64,000 bases of DNA. Origin: an uncultured Chloroflexia bacterium (GTDB lineage: Bacteria; Chloroflexota; Anaerolineae; JAAYZQ01). Of this stretch, positions 5,382 to 24,387 are shown piece by piece. Position 1 is the stretch's first letter, and the number at the start of each line of letters is the position of its first letter. The stretch lies in assembly GCA_963700285.1 (NCBI GenBank), contig CAVOXA010000010.1, positions 832,001 through 896,000 of the forward strand. Reading direction: 5' to 3'. A program made the translations under genes and the position numbers. Under the pieces are notes generated by a model. It did not search any database. It saw only the letters and a list, made by a program, of their open reading frames with translations, and had not been told where the DNA came from.

Positions 5382-5765
5382 GTGACCTATTGGAGACAGC
5401 CCCTGGATCGAGACCGGATCCAGGTACCTCATGGCATCGTTCACATTATTGAGGAACGCTGCAAAGGATGCGGTTACTGCGTCGAGTTTTGCCCCCAGGA
5501 TGTCCTTGTCATGTCTGAGCGCACCAACGCCAAGGGCTATCACCCCCCAGAAGTAGCTATTCCTGATGCGCGGGCGCATCAGGTTGGATCTGCACATCCT
5601 ACTTTGTCCGTGCCTGGAAATGTGTCCTCCCATCAGAGTAGCGCCTGCATCAACTGCGGTTTGTGCGCCATGCTGTGCCCCGATTTTGCCATTTATGTGG
5701 AGGATGGGGGGATGCAGGTCCCCGACAAGATCGAGCCGATACACAGAATTGAGGTGAGGTCATGA
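5382..5765 (+). CDS. korD: 2x[4Fe-4S] ferredoxin, delta subunit of 2-oxoacid:ferredoxin oxidoreductase (with ~24-aa insertion)
   Basis: [12 protein letters not shown] and [12 protein letters not shown]; GTG after AAGGAGG; ATGA overlap with the alpha subunit. Confidence 0.85.
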
Positions 5766-7042
5766 CGGACCATCCTGCGGAGACTGGGCTCGGTCAGGGA
5801 ACTTGTCCCGACAACAGCAAAGAGGCAGGAGCGCCCCAGAGTGACTTCAAGGGCGCTTTGACGGGCAAGCATTTCATGCTGGGGGATCATGCCGCGGCCG
5901 AGGGGGCTATCCTGGCCGGATGCCGCTTCTTTGCGGGTTACCCCATAACACCGGCCACCGAGATCGCCGAACGGATGTCGGTCCGGATGCCCCAGGTGGG
6001 CGGGGTCTATATCCAGATGGAGGATGAGCTGGCCTCGATGAATGCCATCCTGGGTGGCTCGTGGGCTGGCGTCAAGTCGATGACGGCTACCAGCGGCCCC
6101 GGTTTCTCGCTGATGATGGAGAACCTGGGCTTGGGCATTATGCTGGAGACACCCTGCGTGCTGGTCAACGTGCAGCGGGGCGGGCCGTCCACCGGTCTGC
6201 CTACCCTTGTGGGCCAGCAAGACATGATGCAGGCCCGGTGGGGCTCGCACGGCGACTATGAGATCATTGCTTTGGCCCCGACTTCACCCCAGGAGCTGTT
6301 CGACCTGACCATCCGAGCTTTCAACCTATCGGAAAAATACCGTACCCCCGTGTTGGTGATGACCGATGCCGAGGTGGGGCACATGACCGAAAAAGTGGTC
6401 ATTCCGCGGCTAGAGGAGATTGAACTCATCGACCGGCCCCAGGTGCGCAGGGGTGACGTAGAGCCAGATCACTTTCGTATCTTTCGGGATTCCATGCAGA
6501 GGAATCCGTCTGGGGCAGGGAATGGAGGTGGCTACGTCTCGCCCATGGCCATCGCCGGCGAGGGGTACCGCATCCACGTCACGGGCCTGACCCACGACGA
6601 GCGGGGCTATCCGGGCATGAACGCGGAGACGCAGGCGTGGAACATTGCACGGCTGATCGACAAGATCCGCGTCCATCGCCATGACATCATTCAGGTAGAA
6701 GAACAGTATCTGGAAGACGCTGAGGTGGTCGTCGTGTCCTATGGCATCTCGGCGCGCACCTCCCTGTGGCCCATCGAACTGGCGCGCCAGGAGGGCATCC
6801 GGGTGGGTTATCTCCGTCTTATCACCGTCTGGCCCTTTCCCGAGGAGCAGATCCGGAAGATTGCCAAAGGGATCCGCGCCTTTGTCGTCCCCGAGATCAA
6901 TATGGGCCAGATCGCCCGCGAGGTCGAGCGCTGCGCTGCGGGCCAGGCGCAGGTATTCGGTGCCAACCGGCCTGGTGGAGATATCCTCGAGCCTGAGCAC
7001 GTGCTAGATGTGATACGGCTGGCTGCCGGTCAGGAGGAATAG
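5762..7042 (+). CDS. korA: 2-oxoacid:ferredoxin oxidoreductase alpha subunit
   Basis: [38 protein letters not shown]. Confidence 0.92.
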
Positions 7043-7045
7043 CCC

Positions 7046-8611
7046 ATGCCTGTAGAAGAAATGCTACGCAGCGAGCGCTTGCATATGCTGGGCTACGAGC
7101 CCCCCGACGAGAGTGACTGGGTGACTGGACTGCATCCCATGGACGAGCTGCTGCGAGGCGAGAGGCTGCCCCACATTTGGTGCCAGGGCTGCGGCCTGGG
7201 CACGGCCTTGACCACGTTTATCAGCGCCCTGCAATGGCTGGAGGAGAACCGAGATTGGGACCTGGACAAGGTAGCCGTAGTGTCCGGTATCGGCTGTACG
7301 GGTCGCATCGCAGGCTATGTTCGCCTGGATTCTTTTCACACAACCCACGGCCGGGCTATCCCCTTTGCCACCGGTCTCAAGCTGGCAAACCCTGAATTGA
7401 AGGTTGTCGTCATTTCCGGCGATGGGGATATTGCCGGTATCGGCGGCAACCATTTCATCCACGCCGCCCGGCGGAACCTGGATATCACCGTCATCTGTGT
7501 CAACAACTTTAACTATGGCATGACCGGGGGGCAGGCAGGGCCGACCACTCCCCACGACGCTCGGGCGGTCACGACGCAGTACGGTAATTTTGAGTACCCT
7601 TTCAACCTGCCCTATTTGGCGGCAGCCAGTGGCGCTTCTTTCGTAGCTCGGTGGACTGTGCTCCACGCCAGGCGGCTGGACTGGACCCTGCGCGAGGCGA
7701 TGGAACACCCCGGCTTTAGTTTTGTGGAGGTCATTGCTCCCTGTTCCACGGCCTATGCGCGCTGGAACCCCGAGGGCAGTGGGCTCGATCCGGAGAATCT
7801 GCGCCGGCGTGGCCTGGAAGTGCTCAAGTACTACCAAAAGGTGGGCAAGATCGCCCAGGATACCCACCCCAAGGATGCGGGCGTGAAGGTGGATGAGCGG
7901 GGTCTGATTTCCGAGCTGATCGAGGGCAAGTTCTTGGACGACCCCAGGCCAGATCTCCAGGCAGCCATCGAACGTCTCTCTTCCGTCGGCGAGAAGCGAT
8001 GGGAAGGGGCCAAAAAGGCCCTGGATGACCGGCCCCAGTTGCCCACCCGGACGGAGCGAGTACCCCGGACCGAGATACAACTGGGGGGCTTTGGCGGCCA
8101 GGGCATCATCAGCGCCGGCAAGATCATCGGCCAGGCTGCCGCCATCTATGACAACCTGGAGGTCTCTTTCACCCAGAGCTATGGGCCAGAGGCCCGAGGG
8201 GGCTCGGCTGGCTCGCAGGTGGTCATTGCCTCTGACCCCATCCACCATCCGCATCTCACACAGCCAACCATTATGATCATCATTTCTCAAGGCGCCTATG
8301 CCAAGTACGCGCCCAACTTGGCGCCGGGCGGCATCCTGATCATCGATGATGGCCTGGTGGTCCTACCAAAAGATGGCTGCCAGGACATCACTGTCTATGG
8401 CCTGCCCGCCACCCAGATTGCCGAGGAACTTGGCAATAACCGGGCTGCCAATACAGTGATGCTCGGCTTTTGGACGGCCATCGTGGGTGTGGTCAGCCGC
8501 GAAGCCATGCGCCAGTCGGTAGCCGACTCGGTGCCTCCCAAGACGCTCGACGTGAACATGAAAGCCTTCGACGCAGGCTATGAGAGAGGCTTGGAGGTCA
8601 AAGTTGAGTAA
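7046..8611 (+). CDS. korB: 2-oxoacid:ferredoxin oxidoreductase fused beta-gamma subunit
   Basis: N-part WCQGCG, SGIGC, GDGD, YGMTGGQ (ThDP beta); C-part GGFGGQGII, QSYGPEARGG, NTVMLG (gamma). Confidence 0.9.
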   Translation: MPVEEMLRSERLHMLGYEPPDESDWVTGLHPMDELLRGERLPHIWCQGCGLGTALTTFISALQWLEENRDWDLDKVAVVSGIGCTGRIAGYVRLDSFHTTHGRAIPFATGLKLANPELKVVVISGDGDIAGIGGNHFIHAARRNLDITVICVNNFNYGMTGGQAGPTTPHDARAVTTQYGNFEYPFNLPYLAAASGASFVARWTVLHARRLDWTLREAMEHPGFSFVEVIAPCSTAYARWNPEGSGLDPENLRRRGLEVLKYYQKVGKIAQDTHPKDAGVKVDERGLISELIEGKFLDDPRPDLQAAIERLSSVGEKRWEGAKKALDDRPQLPTRTERVPRTEIQLGGFGGQGIISAGKIIGQAAAIYDNLEVSFTQSYGPEARGGSAGSQVVIASDPIHHPHLTQPTIMIIISQGAYAKYAPNLAPGGILIIDDGLVVLPKDGCQDITVYGLPATQIAEELGNNRAANTVMLGFWTAIVGVVSREAMRQSVADSVPPKTLDVNMKAFDAGYERGLEVKVE

Positions 8612-17606: not shown

Positions 17607-20170
17607 TTGTCAACAGACAATCTGCGCATCGGCGTGTTTGTGTGTGACTGCGGCTCCAACATCGCTGGCGCAGTGGACACCGAAGCCTGCCGCGCGTACG
17701 CCGAGACGCTGCCCAATGTGGTCGTGGCCGTAGGGAACAAGTATACCTGCGCCGATCCGGGGCAGCAGGAGATCCAGCGCACGATCTACGAACACAATCT
17801 CAATCGGGTGGTCGTTGCTTCCTGCTCGCCGACCTCGTACGAGCCGATCTTTCGCCAGTGCATCGAGGAGGCCGGGCTCAACCCCTATCTGTTGGAGATG
17901 GCCAACATCCGCGAGCACTGCTCGTGGGTGACCCCCGGCGACCGGCAGGCGGCCACGCGAAAGGCCCAAGACATGGTCAAGGTGGCCGTGGCCCGCTCCC
18001 GGTGGCTCTATCCCCAGGACGAGGAGCAGATCCCGGTCACTCACGCGGCGCTGGTCATCGGCGGTGGTGTGGCCGGCATGCAGGCGGCCCTTGACCTGGC
18101 CGACTCGGGTCACAGGGTCTACCTGGTGGAAAAAAAGCCCTCTATCGGCGGCATCATGGCCCAGCTCGACAAGGTCTATCCCGACATCGAGTGTAGTATA
18201 TGAATTCTCGGGCCAAAGATGATGGATGTCGGTCGACATCCCAAGATTGAACTGCTGGCTTACTCGGAAGTCGAGGATATTACGGGTTATGTGGGCAACT
18301 TTCAGGGCCCGTGTCCGCAAGAAAGCTCGCTACGTGGACGAGAACGAGTGTACGTCCTGTGGCGACTGCGCCACCGTGTGCCCGGTCGTCGTGCCTGACG
18401 AATTCCAGATGGGACTGGGCAGCCGGAAAGCAGTCTACATTCCCTTCCCCCAGGCCGTGCCATCGTCCTACGTTGTGGCCGCCGACGAATGCCTGGGCCA
18501 GAACCCCATCGCCTGTGGCAAGTGCATCGAGGCCTGTGAAAAGAACTGTATCGACTTTGACATGCAGGACGAGATCGTCGACCTCGAAGTGGGCACCATC
18601 GTCGTCGCCACCGGCATGGATGTCTACGACCCCACCGCCACTGGACGAATATGGCTATACCCGTTTTTCTAACGTCATCACCAGCATGGAATTCGAGCGG
18701 CTGGTCTCCACGGGTGGTCCGCTGGGCGGGCATTGGGGGCGGCCCGGGGATCTGCAGCCGCCCAGGCGGATCGGCTTTGTACAATGCGTCGGCTCGCGGA
18801 CACAGGATGCCGAACGAGGCAACTCGTACTGCTCCAATGTATGCTGCATGAACACGGTCAAACAGGCGCAGTACCTGAAGGATAACTATCCCGATATCGA
18901 CATCACGGTCTTTTACATGGACATGCGGGCCTTTGGCAAAGGTTTCGAAGAGCTTTTGATGCGCAGCAAGAGGAACGGCGTGCGCTATATCCGCGGCCTG
19001 CCGGGCGAGGTGCGCCAGAACCCTGACAGCGGCAACCTGTGGGTCACGGTGGAAAACACCACGGCCAACCGCCTGGAGGTCCACGAATTCGAGATGCTGG
19101 TGCTGGCCGTGGGCGCCACGCCGGCCACCGATACGGAAGCGATCCGCCAGCTGGTCAGCCTGTCGCGGGCGCCCAGCGGCTTTCTGAAGGAGGCCCATCC
19201 CAAACTGCGCCCGGTGGATACGCCTACCAAAGGGGTCTATATTGCCGGAGCCGCCGAAAGCCCCAAGGATGTGCGGGAAAGCGTCACCCAGGCCAGCGCC
19301 GCCGCCTCACGGGCCTCCATCCTGCTGAGCAAGAGCCAGTTTTCGGTGGAGGCCATCACCGCCGTGGTGGACGAGGAGCTGTGCAAGATGTGCGGCCAGT
19401 GTGTCGACGTCTGCCCCTTTGGGGCAATCACCTGGCAGAAGAAGCAGGTGGCTCATGTGACCAGTGCGGCCTGCGCCGGGTGCGGCACCTGTGCCGCGGA
19501 ATGCAAGTTCGCCGCCATCGAGATGCGCCACTTCTCCGACCAGGCCATCTATGCCCAGATCGATGCCATCCTGGAGGCGGACCCCCTGGGCAAGATCGTG
19601 ACCTTTGCCTGCAACTGGTGCTCCTACGCCGGGGCGGATACGGCCGGCGTGGCCCGTATGGCTTACCCGCCCAACGCCCGCATCATCCGCACCATGTGCT
19701 CCGGCCGGGTGAATCCCGAGTTCGTGTGGTACGCCTTCAAAAAGGGCGCCCCGGTGGTACTGGTCTCGGGCTGCCACTATGTCGACTGCCACTACCTCGA
19801 TGCCAACCGCAGTACGGTGCGGCGCCAGGATGGCCTCTGGGACGGCCTAGAGAAAGCCGGCCTGCGCCCCCAGCGACTGCAGCTCGAATGGTGCTCGGCG
19901 GCCGAGGGCGGCCGCTGGCAGACCATCATGCGCGAAGCGGAAAAGATGCGCCAGGGCGTGACGCCCGAGGAGGTGGAGCAGAGCCGAGAGGTGCTGGCCC
20001 AGGCCCGGGTGCCCAGCCCGCGCAACCCACGACCAACAGATATCGGCCAGCCCGCGGACTATGCCTGTATGCGCTGCGCCTACCAGTGGGCCGACGTCTT
20101 CCAGATTGCGGAGCGAACCTGCCCGCAGTGCCGCTCCAACAGCGTACGGTGGTTGAAGGCAAAAAGGTAG
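17607..20170 (+). CDS. hdrA: Selenocysteine-containing HdrA fused to MvhD and a C-terminal zinc ribbon (TGA 18201-18203 = Sec; two +1 frameshifts near 18300 and 18640)
   Basis: Three ORF pieces join into one HdrA of ~853 aa: IGVFVCDCG...NIREHCSW...GGGVAG...ECSI*ILGPKMM...CVGSR...YCSNVCC...HPKLRPV...FACNWCSYAG...CHY...CMRC..CPQC. Confidence 0.85.
18224..18241 (+). promoter_or_regulatory. Putative bacterial SECIS element of hdrA
   Basis: GGATGTC-GGTC-GACATCC hairpin; loop begins 27 nt after the TGA. Confidence 0.75.
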
Positions 20171-20242
20171 TTTTTCCGTCAGGCTGAATCCCAATCAAGT
20201 TTTTTGCAACTGCCATACTTGACCACAGAGAGGAGACAAGTC

Positions 20243-21115
20243 ATGAGCTTCTGGAAGCGTTTGCTGGCCGTGGTTGTGATGGTGCTCAGCGTGGCCCTGG
20301 TCATCCTGTGCATCGCCGGCATCGTGGGCAATTGGGTTCTGAGCAAGAGCATGACTGACGGCTTCGTCCGCGTCCTCACAAGCGCAGAAAGGGCCCTGGA
20401 GGTCAGCGACACCGCCCTCACGGGGCTCGATGCCAAGCTGGGCAATGCCCGGGACAGGATCACCGAGTTTGAAGGGAACGTCGAAACGGCTAGCGAAAAC
20501 TTTGTCGAGAATCCAGTCATCCTGATCGCGCTCTCCGAGCGGCTGGACCTGGGGATCGCCCCGGCCATCCAGGAGGTGCTCGACACGGTCCAAACGGTCC
20601 GCGAGAAGGTGATCGCTGTCCAAAACACCATCCAGGCCCTCAACGCCCTGCCCTTTGTCTCTATAGGCCAGAACCCGGAACAGGAAGGGAAACTACAGCG
20701 GCTGTCCGAGGGCGCCGCGGCCCTCAACGAGGGCATACAGGAAACCAGGAACGGGGTCAGAGAGGCAAAGGCGGCCGCTGCCGGCGAGATCATGTTCCGC
20801 ATCGGCAAGGGGACTGCCAGGTTGGATACCGGGCTGGAGAGCATTCAAACAGGGGTACAGGGTTTGCTGGTCCAGGTGTCAGCGACACGCGCCCAGGTAT
20901 CGCGGCTGCGCTCGCAACTGCCACTCTGGCTTGACCTGGCATCCATCGCCATCACCCTGATTCTGCTGTGGATCACCTTCTCCCAGGTGGTCGTCTTTGT
21001 CTTTGGCCTGTCGACCTACAGGAATGAGAATCTGTTTGCGCGTTGGTTTGGACCTTCGGCCCAAGTCCTATCGGAACAACCGCTGACAGAGGACGCTTTG
21101 GCCTCGGAAACGTAG
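20243..21115 (+). CDS. Membrane protein with two TM helices flanking a coiled-coil region
   Basis: AGGAG RBS; N- and C-terminal hydrophobic helices; heptad-rich middle. Confidence 0.75.
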   Translation: MSFWKRLLAVVVMVLSVALVILCIAGIVGNWVLSKSMTDGFVRVLTSAERALEVSDTALTGLDAKLGNARDRITEFEGNVETASENFVENPVILIALSERLDLGIAPAIQEVLDTVQTVREKVIAVQNTIQALNALPFVSIGQNPEQEGKLQRLSEGAAALNEGIQETRNGVREAKAAAAGEIMFRIGKGTARLDTGLESIQTGVQGLLVQVSATRAQVSRLRSQLPLWLDLASIAITLILLWITFSQVVVFVFGLSTYRNENLFARWFGPSAQVLSEQPLTEDALASET

Positions 21116-21208
21116 CACCGCTTGGTTGGCCGGCTGGTGCGCATCAGCCGTTCGTGTGTGAACCTGGAATCGCCTCTCTGAGGCAATGGAAGGCAAGGAG
21201 GGATCAAA

Positions 21209-21628
21209 ATGGAAAGACCAACCGGTATCACCATCATCGCCATCGCGTACTTTGTCCTGGGTTTTCTGTCGCTGCTGTGGAGCGGCCTCGTATTCGGGCT
21301 TGGCGGCATTGGAGCCCTGTTTAGCGGGCTCCTTGGCGCCGAAAACGTAGCGGCCGCCAGCACCGCGGGCGCCTGGTCGGGGTTCCTCGGCATCCTGGCC
21401 GCCATCGTTCAGTTTGCCGTCGCCATCGGGCTGCTGAAAATGAAAAAGTGGGCCTGGGTCCTGGCTTTGGTCGGCGTGGCGCTGACTGTCATCCAGGGCA
21501 TCGCCGGCCTGTTCAGCGGCGGGCCTTTCGCCTTTATGTGCGGATTGCTGGGCCTGCTTGTCCCGGTGCTCATCCTCGTCTACCTGCTGACCGGCAAGGT
21601 GCGGCGCGTTTTTGATGTAGGGGCCTGA
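21209..21628 (+). CDS. Small multi-pass membrane protein
   Basis: AAGGAGG RBS; RPTGITIIAI start, several hydrophobic helices, GLLKMKKWAW. Confidence 0.8.
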   Translation: MERPTGITIIAIAYFVLGFLSLLWSGLVFGLGGIGALFSGLLGAENVAAASTAGAWSGFLGILAAIVQFAVAIGLLKMKKWAWVLALVGVALTVIQGIAGLFSGGPFAFMCGLLGLLVPVLILVYLLTGKVRRVFDVGA

Positions 21629-21677
21629 CCCCGCCTGCGCCTCCGGCGCAGGTAGGAGTTCTCTGCCGGGGAAAAGC

Positions 21678-22094
21678 GTGGAAGATCTAGAGCTGGTGAA
21701 CCAGGTCAAGACCACCTACATCGGCGACCACCGGGTCCGCATTGCCGCCGCGGATCGCAGCTTTGAGGCCGATCAGCGCACGCACCTGGATCGAATGGGC
21801 GCGGGCTTTTGTCCGTTGGAGCTGGTTGCCGCCGCCCTCGGGGCCTGAATGGTGCTCACCATGGCGGCGGTCGCCGACAACAAAGGGATCAAGCCTACGC
21901 GGCTGGCGGCTTCGGTGGAGGGCCGCACCGAGTTTGTGGGCCGCCAGACCACGACCCGTTTCCTCAGCCGCCTGGAGTTGGGCGAGGGGTTGACCCCCCG
22001 CGAGCAGCGCATTCTGTACAACTCGGCCCGGACCTGTGAGGTCCACAAGATGCTGCGGGGTGAGGTCACCTTCGAGGAACAACTGGCAGACTAG
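21678..22094 (+). CDS. OsmC/Ohr-family selenoprotein (138 aa; TGA 21846-21848 = Sec57)
   Basis: GTG 21678 is in frame with ORF 21849: ...ADQRTHLDRMGAGFCPLELVAAALGA*MVLTM...ARTCEVHKML; the TGA sits at the catalytic Cys of the OsmC PxELxxAALGxC motif. Confidence 0.8.
21862..21879 (+). promoter_or_regulatory. Putative bacterial SECIS element of the OsmC-like gene
   Basis: TGGCGGC-GGTC-GCCGACA hairpin (one mismatch); loop begins 20 nt after the TGA. Confidence 0.65.
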
Positions 22095-22344
22095 GCTACC
22101 GAGACCTCGTCCAGGCCTTCCCGGCCAAGATCCACCGTCAGATCACGGTCAAGATCTTTTGGCTCCAGGCAGATCCCCGCCCCCGGGACAGCAAGCGCAT
22201 TGGCGTCGGCTATCGGGCAGATGCGGGGGAGTACCGGCTTTTTGTACCGTGGACGACGAGCAGGAGATGATCATCGTCGAGTTGGTCGGACCACGCAACG
22301 ATGAGGAGATCTACAAGCTGGCAGAGCAACTGGGGATGTTGTAA
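22095..22344 (+). pseudogene. RelE/ParE-family toxin remnant (no start codon, frameshift near 22245)
   Basis: PAKIHRQITVKIFWLQADPRPRDSKRIGVGYRADAGEYRLLY continues in another frame as TVDDEQEMIIVELVGPRNDEEIYK. Confidence 0.7.
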
Positions 22345-22402
22345 GGCTTGTTCTCTTTGATGTCAGATGGTGGGTGATGATGCGTGGACTGTGGTCCACG
22401 CG

Positions 22403-22444
22403 GAGCAGGAGCAGGCGAAGCAAGAGCAGGCGAAGCAGGAGCAG
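22403..22444 (+). repeat. Short intergenic tandem repeat, 15-bp unit
   Basis: GAGCAG GAGCAGGCGAAGCAA GAGCAGGCGAAGCAG GAGCAG. Confidence 0.7.
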
Positions 22445-22518
22445 AGCCAGAGGTTTGGCGAACGCTTGAACTGTGGTCTACGCAGAGCATAGAGTGGAAC
22501 GAGGGCAGGGCGCCGGAT

Positions 22519-24387
22519 GTGAATCTTAAGATCGAACTCCTGGCTCCGGCCAGGGACCTGGACAGCGGCAAGGCCGCCATCGATAGCGGCGCCGATGCCG
22601 TCTATATTGGCGCCGGGCGCTTTGGGGCGCGGGGCAGAGCCGGCAATTCGCTGGACGACATCGCCGCGCTGGCGGCCTATGCCCACACCTATTGGACGCG
22701 CGTGTATGTCACCGTGAATACCCTGCTGCACGACGACGAGCTGCCCGAAGCAGTGCAACTGCTCCACCAGCTCTATGACATTGGCGTGGACGCCGCCATT
22801 ATCCAGGACGTGGGCCTGCTGGAAAGCGATCTCCCGCCACTGGCCCTCATCGCCAGCACGCAGATGCACAACCATACCCCCGAGCGCCTGGCCTTCCTGG
22901 AGCAAATCGGGATCCGGCGCGCTATCCTGGCCCGAGAGTTGAGCCTGGCACAGATTCGGGCCATCCGCGACCGCACTTCTATCGAGCTGGAGGCCTTTGT
23001 CCACGGCGCGCTGTGCGTGAGCTACAGCGGCCAGTGCTACATGAGCTACGCGATCGGAGGGCGAAGTGGCAACCGCGGCGAGTGCGCCCAGCCGTGCCGG
23101 CGCAGGTACACGCTCGTTGACGGCGATGGCAGGGAGGTGGTGAGGAACCGCCACCTGCTCTCGCTTCGGGATCTCAACCTCTCCGGGCACCTGGACGACC
23201 TGCTCGATGCGGGTGTTACGTCCTTCAAGATCGAGGGACGGCTCAAGGACCAGGCCTACGTCACCAACGTGGTGAGCTGGTACCGCCGCGAACTGGACCG
23301 TGTGCTTGCGGCGCGGGGCGGTGGCTCCAGTTCCGGGGGCCCCAATCCCTGGGGGCGCAGCTCTTCAGGCCGCAGCAGCATCGACTTTGAGCCCGACCTG
23401 AGCAAAACCTTCAACCGAGGCTACACGACCCATTTCCTGCAGGGGCGGGGGGAGCCGGCCGGGGCCCCGGATTCTCCCAAGATGGTGGGCGAGTACCTGG
23501 GCACGGTATCCGCCGTGCGAGGGCCCCACTTTGTGCTGGAAACTACTATCCCGCTGCACAGCGGCGATGGCCTGTGCTGGTTTGACGACCAGCACACGCT
23601 GGGGGGAACGGTCGTCAATGCCGTACAATCCGTTGCACCTGATTCCCTGGCCGTGAGGGTCACCCCAGACAAGATCACGGGCATCCACGAGGGCTTGAAG
23701 GTCTATCGAAACCACGATCACACCTTTCTGCGGCAGATCGAGCGCAGCCGGCCGGTGCGCAAGATCGCGGTGCGCCTGCGCCTGGAGAACAAGCCGGAGG
23801 GCTTTGTCCTGTACGCCAGGGATGAGGACGGCAACGTCGCGGCCGCGATGCTCGCAGCGGAAGCAGTACCCGCGCACAAGCCCGAAAGAGCCGGGGCCGC
23901 GGCGCGCAAGCAACTGGGCAAGACCGGAGATACGCCCTTTGCCTGCACACATGTGGATCTGGCCTGGGATCGGCCCTATTTCCTACCGGTCGCTGCGCTC
24001 AACGCCTTGCGCCGCGAGACGCTGGAACGTCTGGTTGCAGCACGCGCCGCCAACCGGCCTCGGATGCGGGGCGAGATCCTGCGAAATGAGGCCCCCTATC
24101 CAGAGACCGCGCTGACCTACCGCGGCAATGCGCTGAACCAGCAGGCCGTGGCTTTCTACCGGCGCCACGGCGTGGAGGAGGTCGCACCGGCCGCCGAATC
24201 GGGGCTCATGATGGGCGGCAGGGTGGTCATGCGCACCCGTTACTGCATCCAGCACCAACTGGGGCTGTGCGACGGCGTGTCCAAAGCCGGCCGGCTGAAG
24301 GGACCGCTGTACCTCGTCGATGAGGACGGGCACCGCTACCGCTTGCGCTTTGACTGTGGGGTTTGCGAGATGGAGGTACTCTACTGA
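22519..24387 (+). CDS. U32 peptidase-family protein with DUF3656 (RlhA-like RNA hydroxylase)
   Basis: ELLAPA, GADAVYIG, FVHGALCVSYSGQC, SGNRGECAQPCR, SFKIEGRLK, FNRGYT. Confidence 0.9.
   Translation: MNLKIELLAPARDLDSGKAAIDSGADAVYIGAGRFGARGRAGNSLDDIAALAAYAHTYWTRVYVTVNTLLHDDELPEAVQLLHQLYDIGVDAAIIQDVGLLESDLPPLALIASTQMHNHTPERLAFLEQIGIRRAILARELSLAQIRAIRDRTSIELEAFVHGALCVSYSGQCYMSYAIGGRSGNRGECAQPCRRRYTLVDGDGREVVRNRHLLSLRDLNLSGHLDDLLDAGVTSFKIEGRLKDQAYVTNVVSWYRRELDRVLAARGGGSSSGGPNPWGRSSSGRSSIDFEPDLSKTFNRGYTTHFLQGRGEPAGAPDSPKMVGEYLGTVSAVRGPHFVLETTIPLHSGDGLCWFDDQHTLGGTVVNAVQSVAPDSLAVRVTPDKITGIHEGLKVYRNHDHTFLRQIERSRPVRKIAVRLRLENKPEGFVLYARDEDGNVAAAMLAAEAVPAHKPERAGAAARKQLGKTGDTPFACTHVDLAWDRPYFLPVAALNALRRETLERLVAARAANRPRMRGEILRNEAPYPETALTYRGNALNQQAVAFYRRHGVEEVAPAAESGLMMGGRVVMRTRYCIQHQLGLCDGVSKAGRLKGPLYLVDEDGHRYRLRFDCGVCEMEVLY

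Follow-up and report, generated by a model that had tools for sequence, protein, structure and literature searches.

The question raised by this locus is whether an in-frame TGA codon, which interrupts a short gene of an uncultured Chloroflexia bacterium, acts as a stop or as a selenocysteine (Sec) codon and, if the latter, what the resulting selenoprotein might do. The gene lies on the forward strand of the window (the whole 64,000-nt stretch of DNA that was analysed), at 21678..22094, where a frame of 138 codons runs from a GTG start to a TAG stop at 22092-22094. Gene calling under translation table 11 yields only an 81-aa C-terminal half (21849-22094), and the claim of the sequence-only reading that a 138-aa frame had been missed by ORF calling is therefore borne out. 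A purine-rich, Shine–Dalgarno-like GGGGA (21668..21672) ends 5 nt ahead of the GTG and, judging from its sequence, would be the ribosome-binding site; the start position is shared by the orthologs in the alignment. The read-through protein scores 51.1 bits against PF02566 (cut-off 27.5) and is annotated here as an Ohr-like selenoprotein.

The TGA (21846..21848) is codon 57, within PLELVAAALGA-U-MVLTM, and falls in the column of the peroxidatic cysteine (Cp), aligning with the first Cys of the structures 2PN2, 1UKK and 1QWI. The second Cys of the same three structures, the resolving one (Cr), aligns with Cys120 (22035..22037, TCEV/CEVH), and a third cysteine, which is specific to the clade, is found in a GFCP motif as Cys45-Pro46 (21810..21815), at the start of helix 1 (residues 46-69 in the model). 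In this regard, the TGA at the Cp position, the intact resolving Cys and the extra Cys are all as had been proposed from the letters of the sequence. In alignment A1, C45, U57 and C120 are invariant and H123 is present in at least 90% of rows; the CP pair at 45-46 is kept in 44 of 45 distinct TGA orthologs and in 23 of 25 full-length clade proteins, and positions U+3 and U+4 are Leu and Thr in 45/45, giving a clade motif of U-[MIV]-x-L-T. An AlphaFold2 monomer model built from a 20-row alignment has a mean pLDDT of 87.5, and the Foldseek matches listed for it are Ohr/OsmC-fold structures, headed by 2PN2. Residue 47, which aligns with the catalytic Glu of 1UKK and 1QWI, is L in 16, V in 12, I in 12, T in three and M in two of the 45 orthologs. 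An arginine in loop 3, R34, is found in at least 90% of A1 but is offset by three residues from the Arg of this genome's true OsmC (a different gene, L040), and it is gone in deep members.

From comparison of these sequences, the TGA at codon 57 is almost certainly read as Sec. A search of 61 related genomes returned matches in 25, of which 22 were strong; 21 of the 22 have one TGA and one has Cys (TGT, locus L030), with a frameshift after the TGA in the genes of two of the 21 TGA-bearing genomes. Scanning GTDB contigs turned up 44 loci, 35 on contigs titled Chloroflexota/Anaerolineae and nine on contigs titled Desulfobacterota/Deltaproteobacteria; one is a fragment and the remaining 43 all carry TGA. 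When pooled, 63 loci reduce to 46 distinct sequences, 45 with TGA. Homologs without Cys or Sec at this column had been named beforehand as evidence that would count against a selenoprotein, and TGA or Cys is what was found. Public protein databases tell a similar story, in that 157 of 268 retrieved proteins are halves cut at the Sec codon, seven being N-halves whose last residue stands directly before U and 150 being C-halves that start after it. Among 25 full-length clade proteins (>80 bits), the column holds Cys in 21 and Trp in four, the latter probably reflecting TGA read under another code. Tryptophan was also considered for the window's own TGA and rejected, since the genome has a tRNA-Sec(UCA) and its ordinary genes end in TGA.

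A true stop, whether it reflects a pseudogene, an error in sequencing or the junction (TGA-ATG) of two halves coupled in translation, is hardly credible, even though an ATG directly follows the TGA in 32 of the 45 orthologs, this assembly has many indels and the hairpin discussed below lacks significance on a single sequence. Set against it is the fact that the stop is TGA in 45/45 distinct stop-bearing orthologs from Anaerolineae and Desulfobacterota and never TAA or TAG; in addition, Ile or Val follows directly in 13 of 45, and what the stop replaces is the catalytic Cys. Moreover, purifying selection acts on both halves, with omega against nine orthologs of the same family at 0.09-0.23 and 0.11-0.39 (one N-half being saturated), and the hairpin covaries. 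The TGA is furthermore present in two independent contigs, one from an RNA library (X1, 21732-22092), with no change listed at the TGA, and one from DNA (X2, 21819-22136), with no other letters, from which it follows that it is not an assembly error. The RNA-library contigs, X1 over the gene and X8 over its upstream part, do not as such show transcription.

The GGUC-loop hairpin that had been noticed 20 nt past the TGA is present at 21865-21876, with a 4-bp stem (21865-21868/21873-21876) and the loop at 21869-21872. A consensus structure over 19 orthologs (RNAalifold) gives the same 4-bp stem, nt 20-23/28-31 counted from the U of the UGA, closed by a 4-nt loop. Three of the four stem pairs are fixed by protein coding and are hence uninformative. 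The remaining pair, nt21-nt30, is between two third codon positions, both synonymous, and is intact in 45/45 sequences as GC (23), UA (13), CG (5), AU (2) or UG (2). Its mutual information is 1.44 bits, as against 0.41 for the next best of 153 fourfold-site pairs, and 100,000 shuffles paired these positions in at most 33 of 45 sequences, a figure that is uncorrected for kinship. The loop is GGUC in 38, GGUU in four and AGUY in three of the 45, and the pair is broken in the Cys-coding gene L030 (n=1). The gene's own sequence folded singly, on the other hand, does no better than shuffles (z -0.33 to +0.13), such that support for it is comparative. A rival register with 5 bp and a GCGGU loop folds at -6.6, and a slide of -3 pairs 97% of cells, but it has no two-sided change; it was rejected and the 4-bp GGUC register retained. 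The published bSECIS model has a loop of 3-9 nt, a stem of 4-16 bp, a G in the first two loop positions, a spacing of 16-37 nt and an energy of -7.5 or lower (PMC13188914, as given in the part of that source consulted). The hairpin, with its 4-nt GGUC loop, 4-bp stem and 20-nt spacing, lies within this geometry; its energy is borderline, at -7.6 kcal/mol for nt 10-48, the bare 12-nt hairpin reaching -5.0. The same GGUC loop follows the Sec codon in the two hdrA genes of this genome, there on 7-bp hairpins.

The genome, which is 89% complete, has the machinery for Sec insertion. Absence of selA, selB, selC and selD had been put forward as grounds for abandoning the proposal, and all four are present with profile matches over cut-off: selA at 579 bits, selB at 288, selD at 196 and tRNA-Sec (selC) at 67.5. 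The selD gene has a UxxK Sec codon of its own. Both selB and selD are frameshifted in the assembly, as is the hdrA of the window; since four of five relatives, including one of the same genus, have selB as an uninterrupted frame of 640-692 aa, we infer that these are assembly indels. Gene calls in this assembly need care, there being several single-base frameshifts at C9:55360-58818 (L005) and C10:2125454-2129233 (L003) of this genome (G000); the gene in front of selD is presumably a TusA/YedF-DsrE selenium-metabolism protein. Across genomes, selA is found in 20 of 21 with the TGA gene, which discriminates little given that 55 of all 61 have selA; G003 has the TGA gene and no selA match.

Further Sec codons are seen elsewhere in the genome. 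The hdrA-mvhD fusion of the window (17607..20170, forward strand) has a CxxU Sec codon at 18201-18203 followed by its 7-bp GGUC-loop hairpin at 18224-18241, and is split by the TGA together with an assembly frameshift into three ORFs. The second Sec-type hdrA is at C7:68812, and a TxxU Sec motif with a downstream hairpin lies at C10:1161571 on the reverse strand, its peroxiredoxin-like label being a reading of the motif. The regex scan behind these gave mostly chance matches, and only the two hdrA genes, selD and the one TxxU peroxiredoxin were used. In a relative, G010:C78:35965-36273 (L136) is a PF02566 match with one in-frame TGA and no match when the window gene is the query; it is possibly a further Sec-bearing gene of the OsmC fold.

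Within the Ohr/OsmC family, the window gene belongs to what is apparently an uncatalogued, separate Ohr-like Sec lineage. The Ohr-like assignment follows from replacement of the conserved Glu of Ohr and OsmC in 45/45 orthologs; the Cys pair is present and the clade falls outside those of Ohr and OsmC. Scores on the models TIGR03562 (22.5 bits, cut-off 85.8) and TIGR03561 (13.9, cut-off 88.85) are low, and so is that on NF041052, the known OsmC-like selenoprotein family (25.3, cut-off 95), for which a search of this genome found nothing at an E-value of 0.001 or lower. In a tree of 41 rows with the Sec column dropped, the CP clade is supported at 97/91 and NF041052 (25 loci fetched; 22 of 401 genomes over cut-off) at 98/94, with Cys-only rows between them, and a joint clade of the two is rejected (p-AU 0.003; 41/89 rows, 135 columns). 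Groups were named before any tree was made, and the 41 rows were chosen from 89 after viewing a quick tree. Sec and Cys rows are intermixed within the clade, and starred branches of the quick 89-row tree force at least three changes. On the simplest reading of these sequences, Sec was gained a second time, independently, in the Ohr/OsmC fold; the alternative is an ancestral Sec with many losses.

The sequence-only reading of an OsmC-family selenoprotein accordingly stands as regards a Sec protein of the PF02566 fold, and falls as regards the strict OsmC subfamily or the reported NF041052/UxxT family. Its statement that Sec-containing OsmC-like proteins are known in bacteria is sound, the UxxT family, NF041052, having been first reported from the Sargasso Sea (PMC1088965, seen in part). 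A catalogue of 119 prokaryotic selenoprotein families has one OsmC-like entry, and it has UxxT. The literature searched contains no description of the window clade, although BSepDB and RefSeq U-bearing records, which stand outside that search, may hold members as OsmC-like; one supplementary file of PMC13326102 gives no match to OsmC, PF02566 or NF041052. The gene is also rare: 400 further genomes of the phylum gave one weak, stop-free match and no clear member.

The genes around the locus bear on its function. Upstream are, as had been noted, Fe-S enzymes of the Hdr/Kor kind, namely a 2-oxoacid:ferredoxin oxidoreductase (5762-8611) and HdrA/MvhD/CCG proteins. In the window's family, eight of 14 loci lie directly behind hdrA-mvhD (within 416 nt) and six are in unrelated contexts. 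Between hdrA-mvhD and the Sec gene of the window are a coiled-coil membrane protein (20204-21115) and a small membrane protein (21209-21628), both on the forward strand and without Pfam matches, which look inserted because in a genome of the same genus hdrA lies 57 nt ahead of the gene. None of the 14 loci has a lipoate-protein ligase in its flank, and in the window there is neither a ligase nor a GcvH within 6 kb of the gene; the partners in this genome are elsewhere, with the ligase standing alone at C10:727332-728378 and GcvH at C1:63893-64303. From C1:62724-64303 onward (L086:8707-14252), an HdrD-like CCG protein and this GcvH carrier directly precede NuoE/F/G-like genes and molybdopterin, NADH-linked formate-dehydrogenase-like genes, and the stretch read holds no glycine-cleavage partners of the carrier. 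Downstream of the Sec gene is a frameshifted remnant (22093-22344, forward strand), the tested pieces of which have no Pfam or NCBIfam match and which looks to be of the RelE/ParE addiction-module type. Short imperfect purine-rich repeats (GCAGGA/GCGAAGCA units) follow at 22400-22450, ahead of a U32 peptidase gene. A promoter and terminator scan of 20100-22600 was uninformative, with no promoter-like sites and four terminator-like sites where 2.3 were expected.

Outside the window's family the picture differs, in that a lipoate-protein ligase is within 400 nt in 23 of 29 loci, upstream of the gene in Chloroflexota and downstream in Desulfobacterota. A ligase or GcvH is in the flank of 26 of these 29, always on the same strand; within 400 nt, the ligase is found in 23 loci and GcvH in one. 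Taking all 44 regions (43 loci and the window; flanks of up to 6 kb, often shorter), GcvH occurs in 16, an HdrD-like CCG protein in 21 and HdrA in 13, and at least one of ligase, GcvH, HdrD-like protein or HdrA occurs in 36, all on the strand of the gene. The link to Hdr that the earlier reading drew from the adjacent genes is conserved in the window's own family, but elsewhere the tighter link is to lipoate ligase and GcvH. Protection of Hdr and Kor, as suggested in that reading, may be a role of the product, the Kor link having been looked at in this window. By way of control, none of 33 other OsmC-family loci has a ligase- or GcvH-type neighbour within 1.5 kb on each side, and neither does the Cys member L030. 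Among the other listed PF02566 matches, 1 of 131 has a match to GcvH or the ligase less than 6 kb away, as judged by eye. This one (L137, G020:C19:32500-37500) is a stop-free OsmC-family gene 1.4 kb from GcvH that adjoins an E3-like gene, the label being a reading of the sequence.

The neighbouring GcvH ORFs show the lipoyl-Lys motif ESGKW in 14 of 15 cases, and it is also present in this genome's own copy. This GcvH subtype is found in 20 of 22 genomes with the Sec gene, the two exceptions being 75% and 81% complete. Among 38 genomes of the same class but other families it is in seven of seven with the gene and six of 31 without, a comparison that is inflated by kinship, uses a query from one such locus and has a threshold set post hoc. 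Conversely, 14 of 34 genomes with the subtype lack the Sec gene, which makes the gene an accessory of a cytochrome/NarI-HdrD-GcvH-LplA module that runs without it in those genomes; 20 fetched LplA/GcvH regions contained no divergent clade member.

Some loci hold further genes of sulfur and lipoate metabolism. Three have genes of a sulfur relay (DsrE/F/H, TusA and DsrE2), and in Desulfobacterota four loci have LipS2-like and LipT-like genes, two of the four also a LipS1-like gene. The Desulfobacterota cluster of L078 (1-11941), L081 and L084 reads as 2-oxoacid/acetoin dehydrogenase E1 beta, an NAD-kinase-like protein, a cytochrome c-NarI fusion, GcvH, an HdrD-like protein and the Sec gene, continuing with LplA-DUF116, a LipT-like flavoprotein, LipS1, LipS2 and a methyltransferase (L084 ends after the ligase). 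Judged by gene content, reoxidation of the lipoyl carrier in these organisms may fall to a membrane complex of the Hdr-like kind. In another locus, L082, a forward-strand dihydropteroate synthase (1010-2260), in a folate operon next to the ligase, reaches 407 of 600 bits on the Sul4 model and is hence Sul4-related, under cut-off. A combination of GcvH, HdrD and lipoate was found in no paper of the literature search.

With these features in hand, we put at about one half the probability that the window's product is a lipoyl-dependent seleno-peroxidase working by the whole of the following mechanism, which draws on sequence and on analogy with Ohr and OsmC. SelB would read the hairpin and insert Sec57, and the protein would dimerise. 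The Sec57 selenolate, in the role of Cp, would attack a hydroperoxide, after which Cys120 would close a selenenyl-sulfide with Sec57. This bond would be reduced by the dihydrolipoyl arm of a GcvH-type carrier that had been loaded by the neighbouring lipoate ligase, and the carrier would in turn be re-reduced by dihydrolipoamide dehydrogenase (E3) or by the co-encoded HdrD-like/Hdr electron chain. Selenium would take the place of the thiolate activation by Glu and Arg that is found in true Ohr and OsmC and is apparently missing here. The pKa of Sec is low, such that Sec57 would be ionised without help from Glu or Arg. The lipoyl pool and the Fe-S/flavin Hdr complexes, which are sensitive to O2, would be the likely beneficiaries.

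The chemistry invoked is that described for Ohr and OsmC in the available text of PMC5384416 and PMC5962072, in which Cp reacts with the peroxide, Cr then resolves it, and the resulting disulfide is reduced by lipoylated proteins. The Cys pKa rises on loss of the Arg or Glu, and Ohr activity is impaired on loss of the Glu (PMC5962072, seen in part). As to the carrier, an Ohr-like enzyme from Trichomonas may depend on H and L proteins (PMC5384416, same extent), and a GcvH-like protein has been proposed as the OsmC donor in Hyphomicrobium (bioRxiv 10.64898/2026.10.01.755906, seen in part). Ohr-like proteins are nonetheless poorly characterised, and the Trichomonas one showed no peroxidase activity for its authors, as far as the accessible text of PMC5384416 goes. 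The lipoyl-peroxidase reading is moreover weakened by features of the present data: the absence of the catalytic Glu in 45/45 (L/V/I/T/M), the lack of a flanking ligase in all 14 loci of the window's family, with the window's partners elsewhere, the carrier module without the gene in 14 of 34 genomes, and the near-invariant Cys45, which a two-Cys peroxidase cycle does not explain. An E3 search was over cut-off in four of five genomes, G000 giving only partial matches.

The main rival, which is possible if clearly the lesser bet, is a selenoenzyme that acts on the lipoyl group rather than on peroxides, through a three-centre Cys45/Sec57/Cys120 relay. Its tasks, also tentative, could be to repair oxidised or mixed-disulfide lipoate, to pass reduced lipoate to the ligase, or to move sulfur or persulfide between the carrier and HdrD/HdrA. 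It would account for the missing peroxidase Glu and the conserved Cys45, and it fits the ligase (23 loci), not GcvH (one), as the tightest neighbour, the sulfur-relay genes of three loci and the LipS2-like and LipS1-like genes in Desulfobacterota. Outside this clade, sulfur oxidisers use lipoyl carriers in Hdr-like sulfur chemistry (PMC10332631), and the lplA2-gcvH-L operon shields lipoate from oxidation in S. aureus (PMC12440151), each according to the part of the source available. However, the literature searched, in so far as its text was accessible, nowhere ascribes such an activity to the Ohr/OsmC fold; the module and ligase occur without the gene in 14 of 34 genomes, so the gene is dispensable for maturation, and the window's family no longer has it beside the ligase. 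A selenoprotein antioxidant that takes its electrons from thioredoxin-like proteins or directly from Hdr, for which ligase adjacency would be inherited synteny without functional meaning, is unlikely. It would suit the window's family, with its eight loci behind hdrA-mvhD and six in unrelated contexts, and the loci are related, such that adjacency counts are not independent; yet the adjacency recurs in two phyla and in two arrangements, upstream in one and downstream in the other, and the known reductants of the family are lipoyl proteins (PMC5384416, in the part seen).

Quite unlikely, too, is a selenoprotein that binds metal or handles Fe-S clusters or metals at a site made of Cys45, Sec57, Cys120 and His123. 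These four potential ligands are conserved and the neighbours are rich in Fe-S proteins, but His123 also occurs in ordinary Ohr-like proteins with CPVH and gives way to Y, G, S, A or K in the deeper members, the C45 column is held in related proteins by a helix-capping S, T, N or P, and ligase adjacency is left unexplained. A wider and more speculative reading, which we regard as doubtful, would join the second independent recruitment of Sec to a three-chalcogen enzyme (Cys45/Sec57/Cys120) in Anaerolineae and Desulfobacterota. It would serve as terminal partner to a lipoyl shuttle of anaerobes that is as yet undescribed (cytochrome c/NarI-like, HdrD-like, GcvH and LplA), and its target would be the lipoyl arm or sulfur species, in place of a plain peroxidase role. 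If true, it would amount to a selenoprotein tied directly to lipoate chemistry, without an entry in the 119-family catalogue.

Whichever function applies, a selenoprotein subfamily is added that public gene calls have missed, as the 157 halves among 268 retrieved proteins attest. The poorly characterised Ohr-like group gains a testable partner, in that the neighbouring genes name a likely reductant, and the natural Sec and Cys versions within one clade offer a direct test of whether selenium offsets the apparently missing Glu/Arg activation. The loci also point to a conserved HdrD-GcvH-LplA module in sediment anaerobes, the chemistry of which is without description in the literature searched. 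The reach is modest, the gene being rare and a Sec-for-Cys swap in a redox fold a familiar pattern.

Compared with known systems, the window clade has in common with the OsmC-like selenoprotein NF041052 the PF02566 fold, a Sec column 11 residues past a conserved Pro, a downstream resolving Cys and occurrence in Chloroflexota. The remainder of the sequence is dissimilar, UxxT is found in none of the 45 members of the window clade, and NF041052 members are without the CP and CEVH motifs and without a ligase or GcvH within 1.5 kb. With the Ohr and OsmC subfamilies it shares the fold, the Cp/Cr pair and, probably, the lipoyl reductant, but the conserved Glu directly after the helix-1 Pro is exchanged for a hydrophobic residue or Thr and, in contrast to OsmC, no Arg in register with that of OsmC is kept across the clade. 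The Ohr-like third group (2PN2; PMC5384416, seen in part) likewise has a Cys pair about 60 residues apart (57/120 here) and no catalytic Glu, 2PN2 being the best match in both sequence and structure. What distinguishes the window clade from that group is the Sec that stands in for the first Cys in the majority of genes seen, the additional Cys of the CP motif, and a C-E-V triplet in place of the C-P-V of its closest relatives outside the clade. At the level of gene arrangement, the L/H-protein-OsmC grouping of L137 resembles that of Trichomonas. Judged from the available parts of their descriptions, the Trichomonas hydrogenosome, the Hyphomicrobium GcvH_1-OsmC pair and the sHdr-LbpA / sLpl(AB)-LipS1/S2 systems have in common with the present loci that an enzyme of the OsmC fold or Hdr type is paired with a free-standing lipoyl carrier that has a ligase of its own; what sets the present loci apart is the setting in anaerobes, with cytochrome c/NarI-like, HdrD-like (CCG), GcvH and LplA components, and a partner of the OsmC fold that has Sec.
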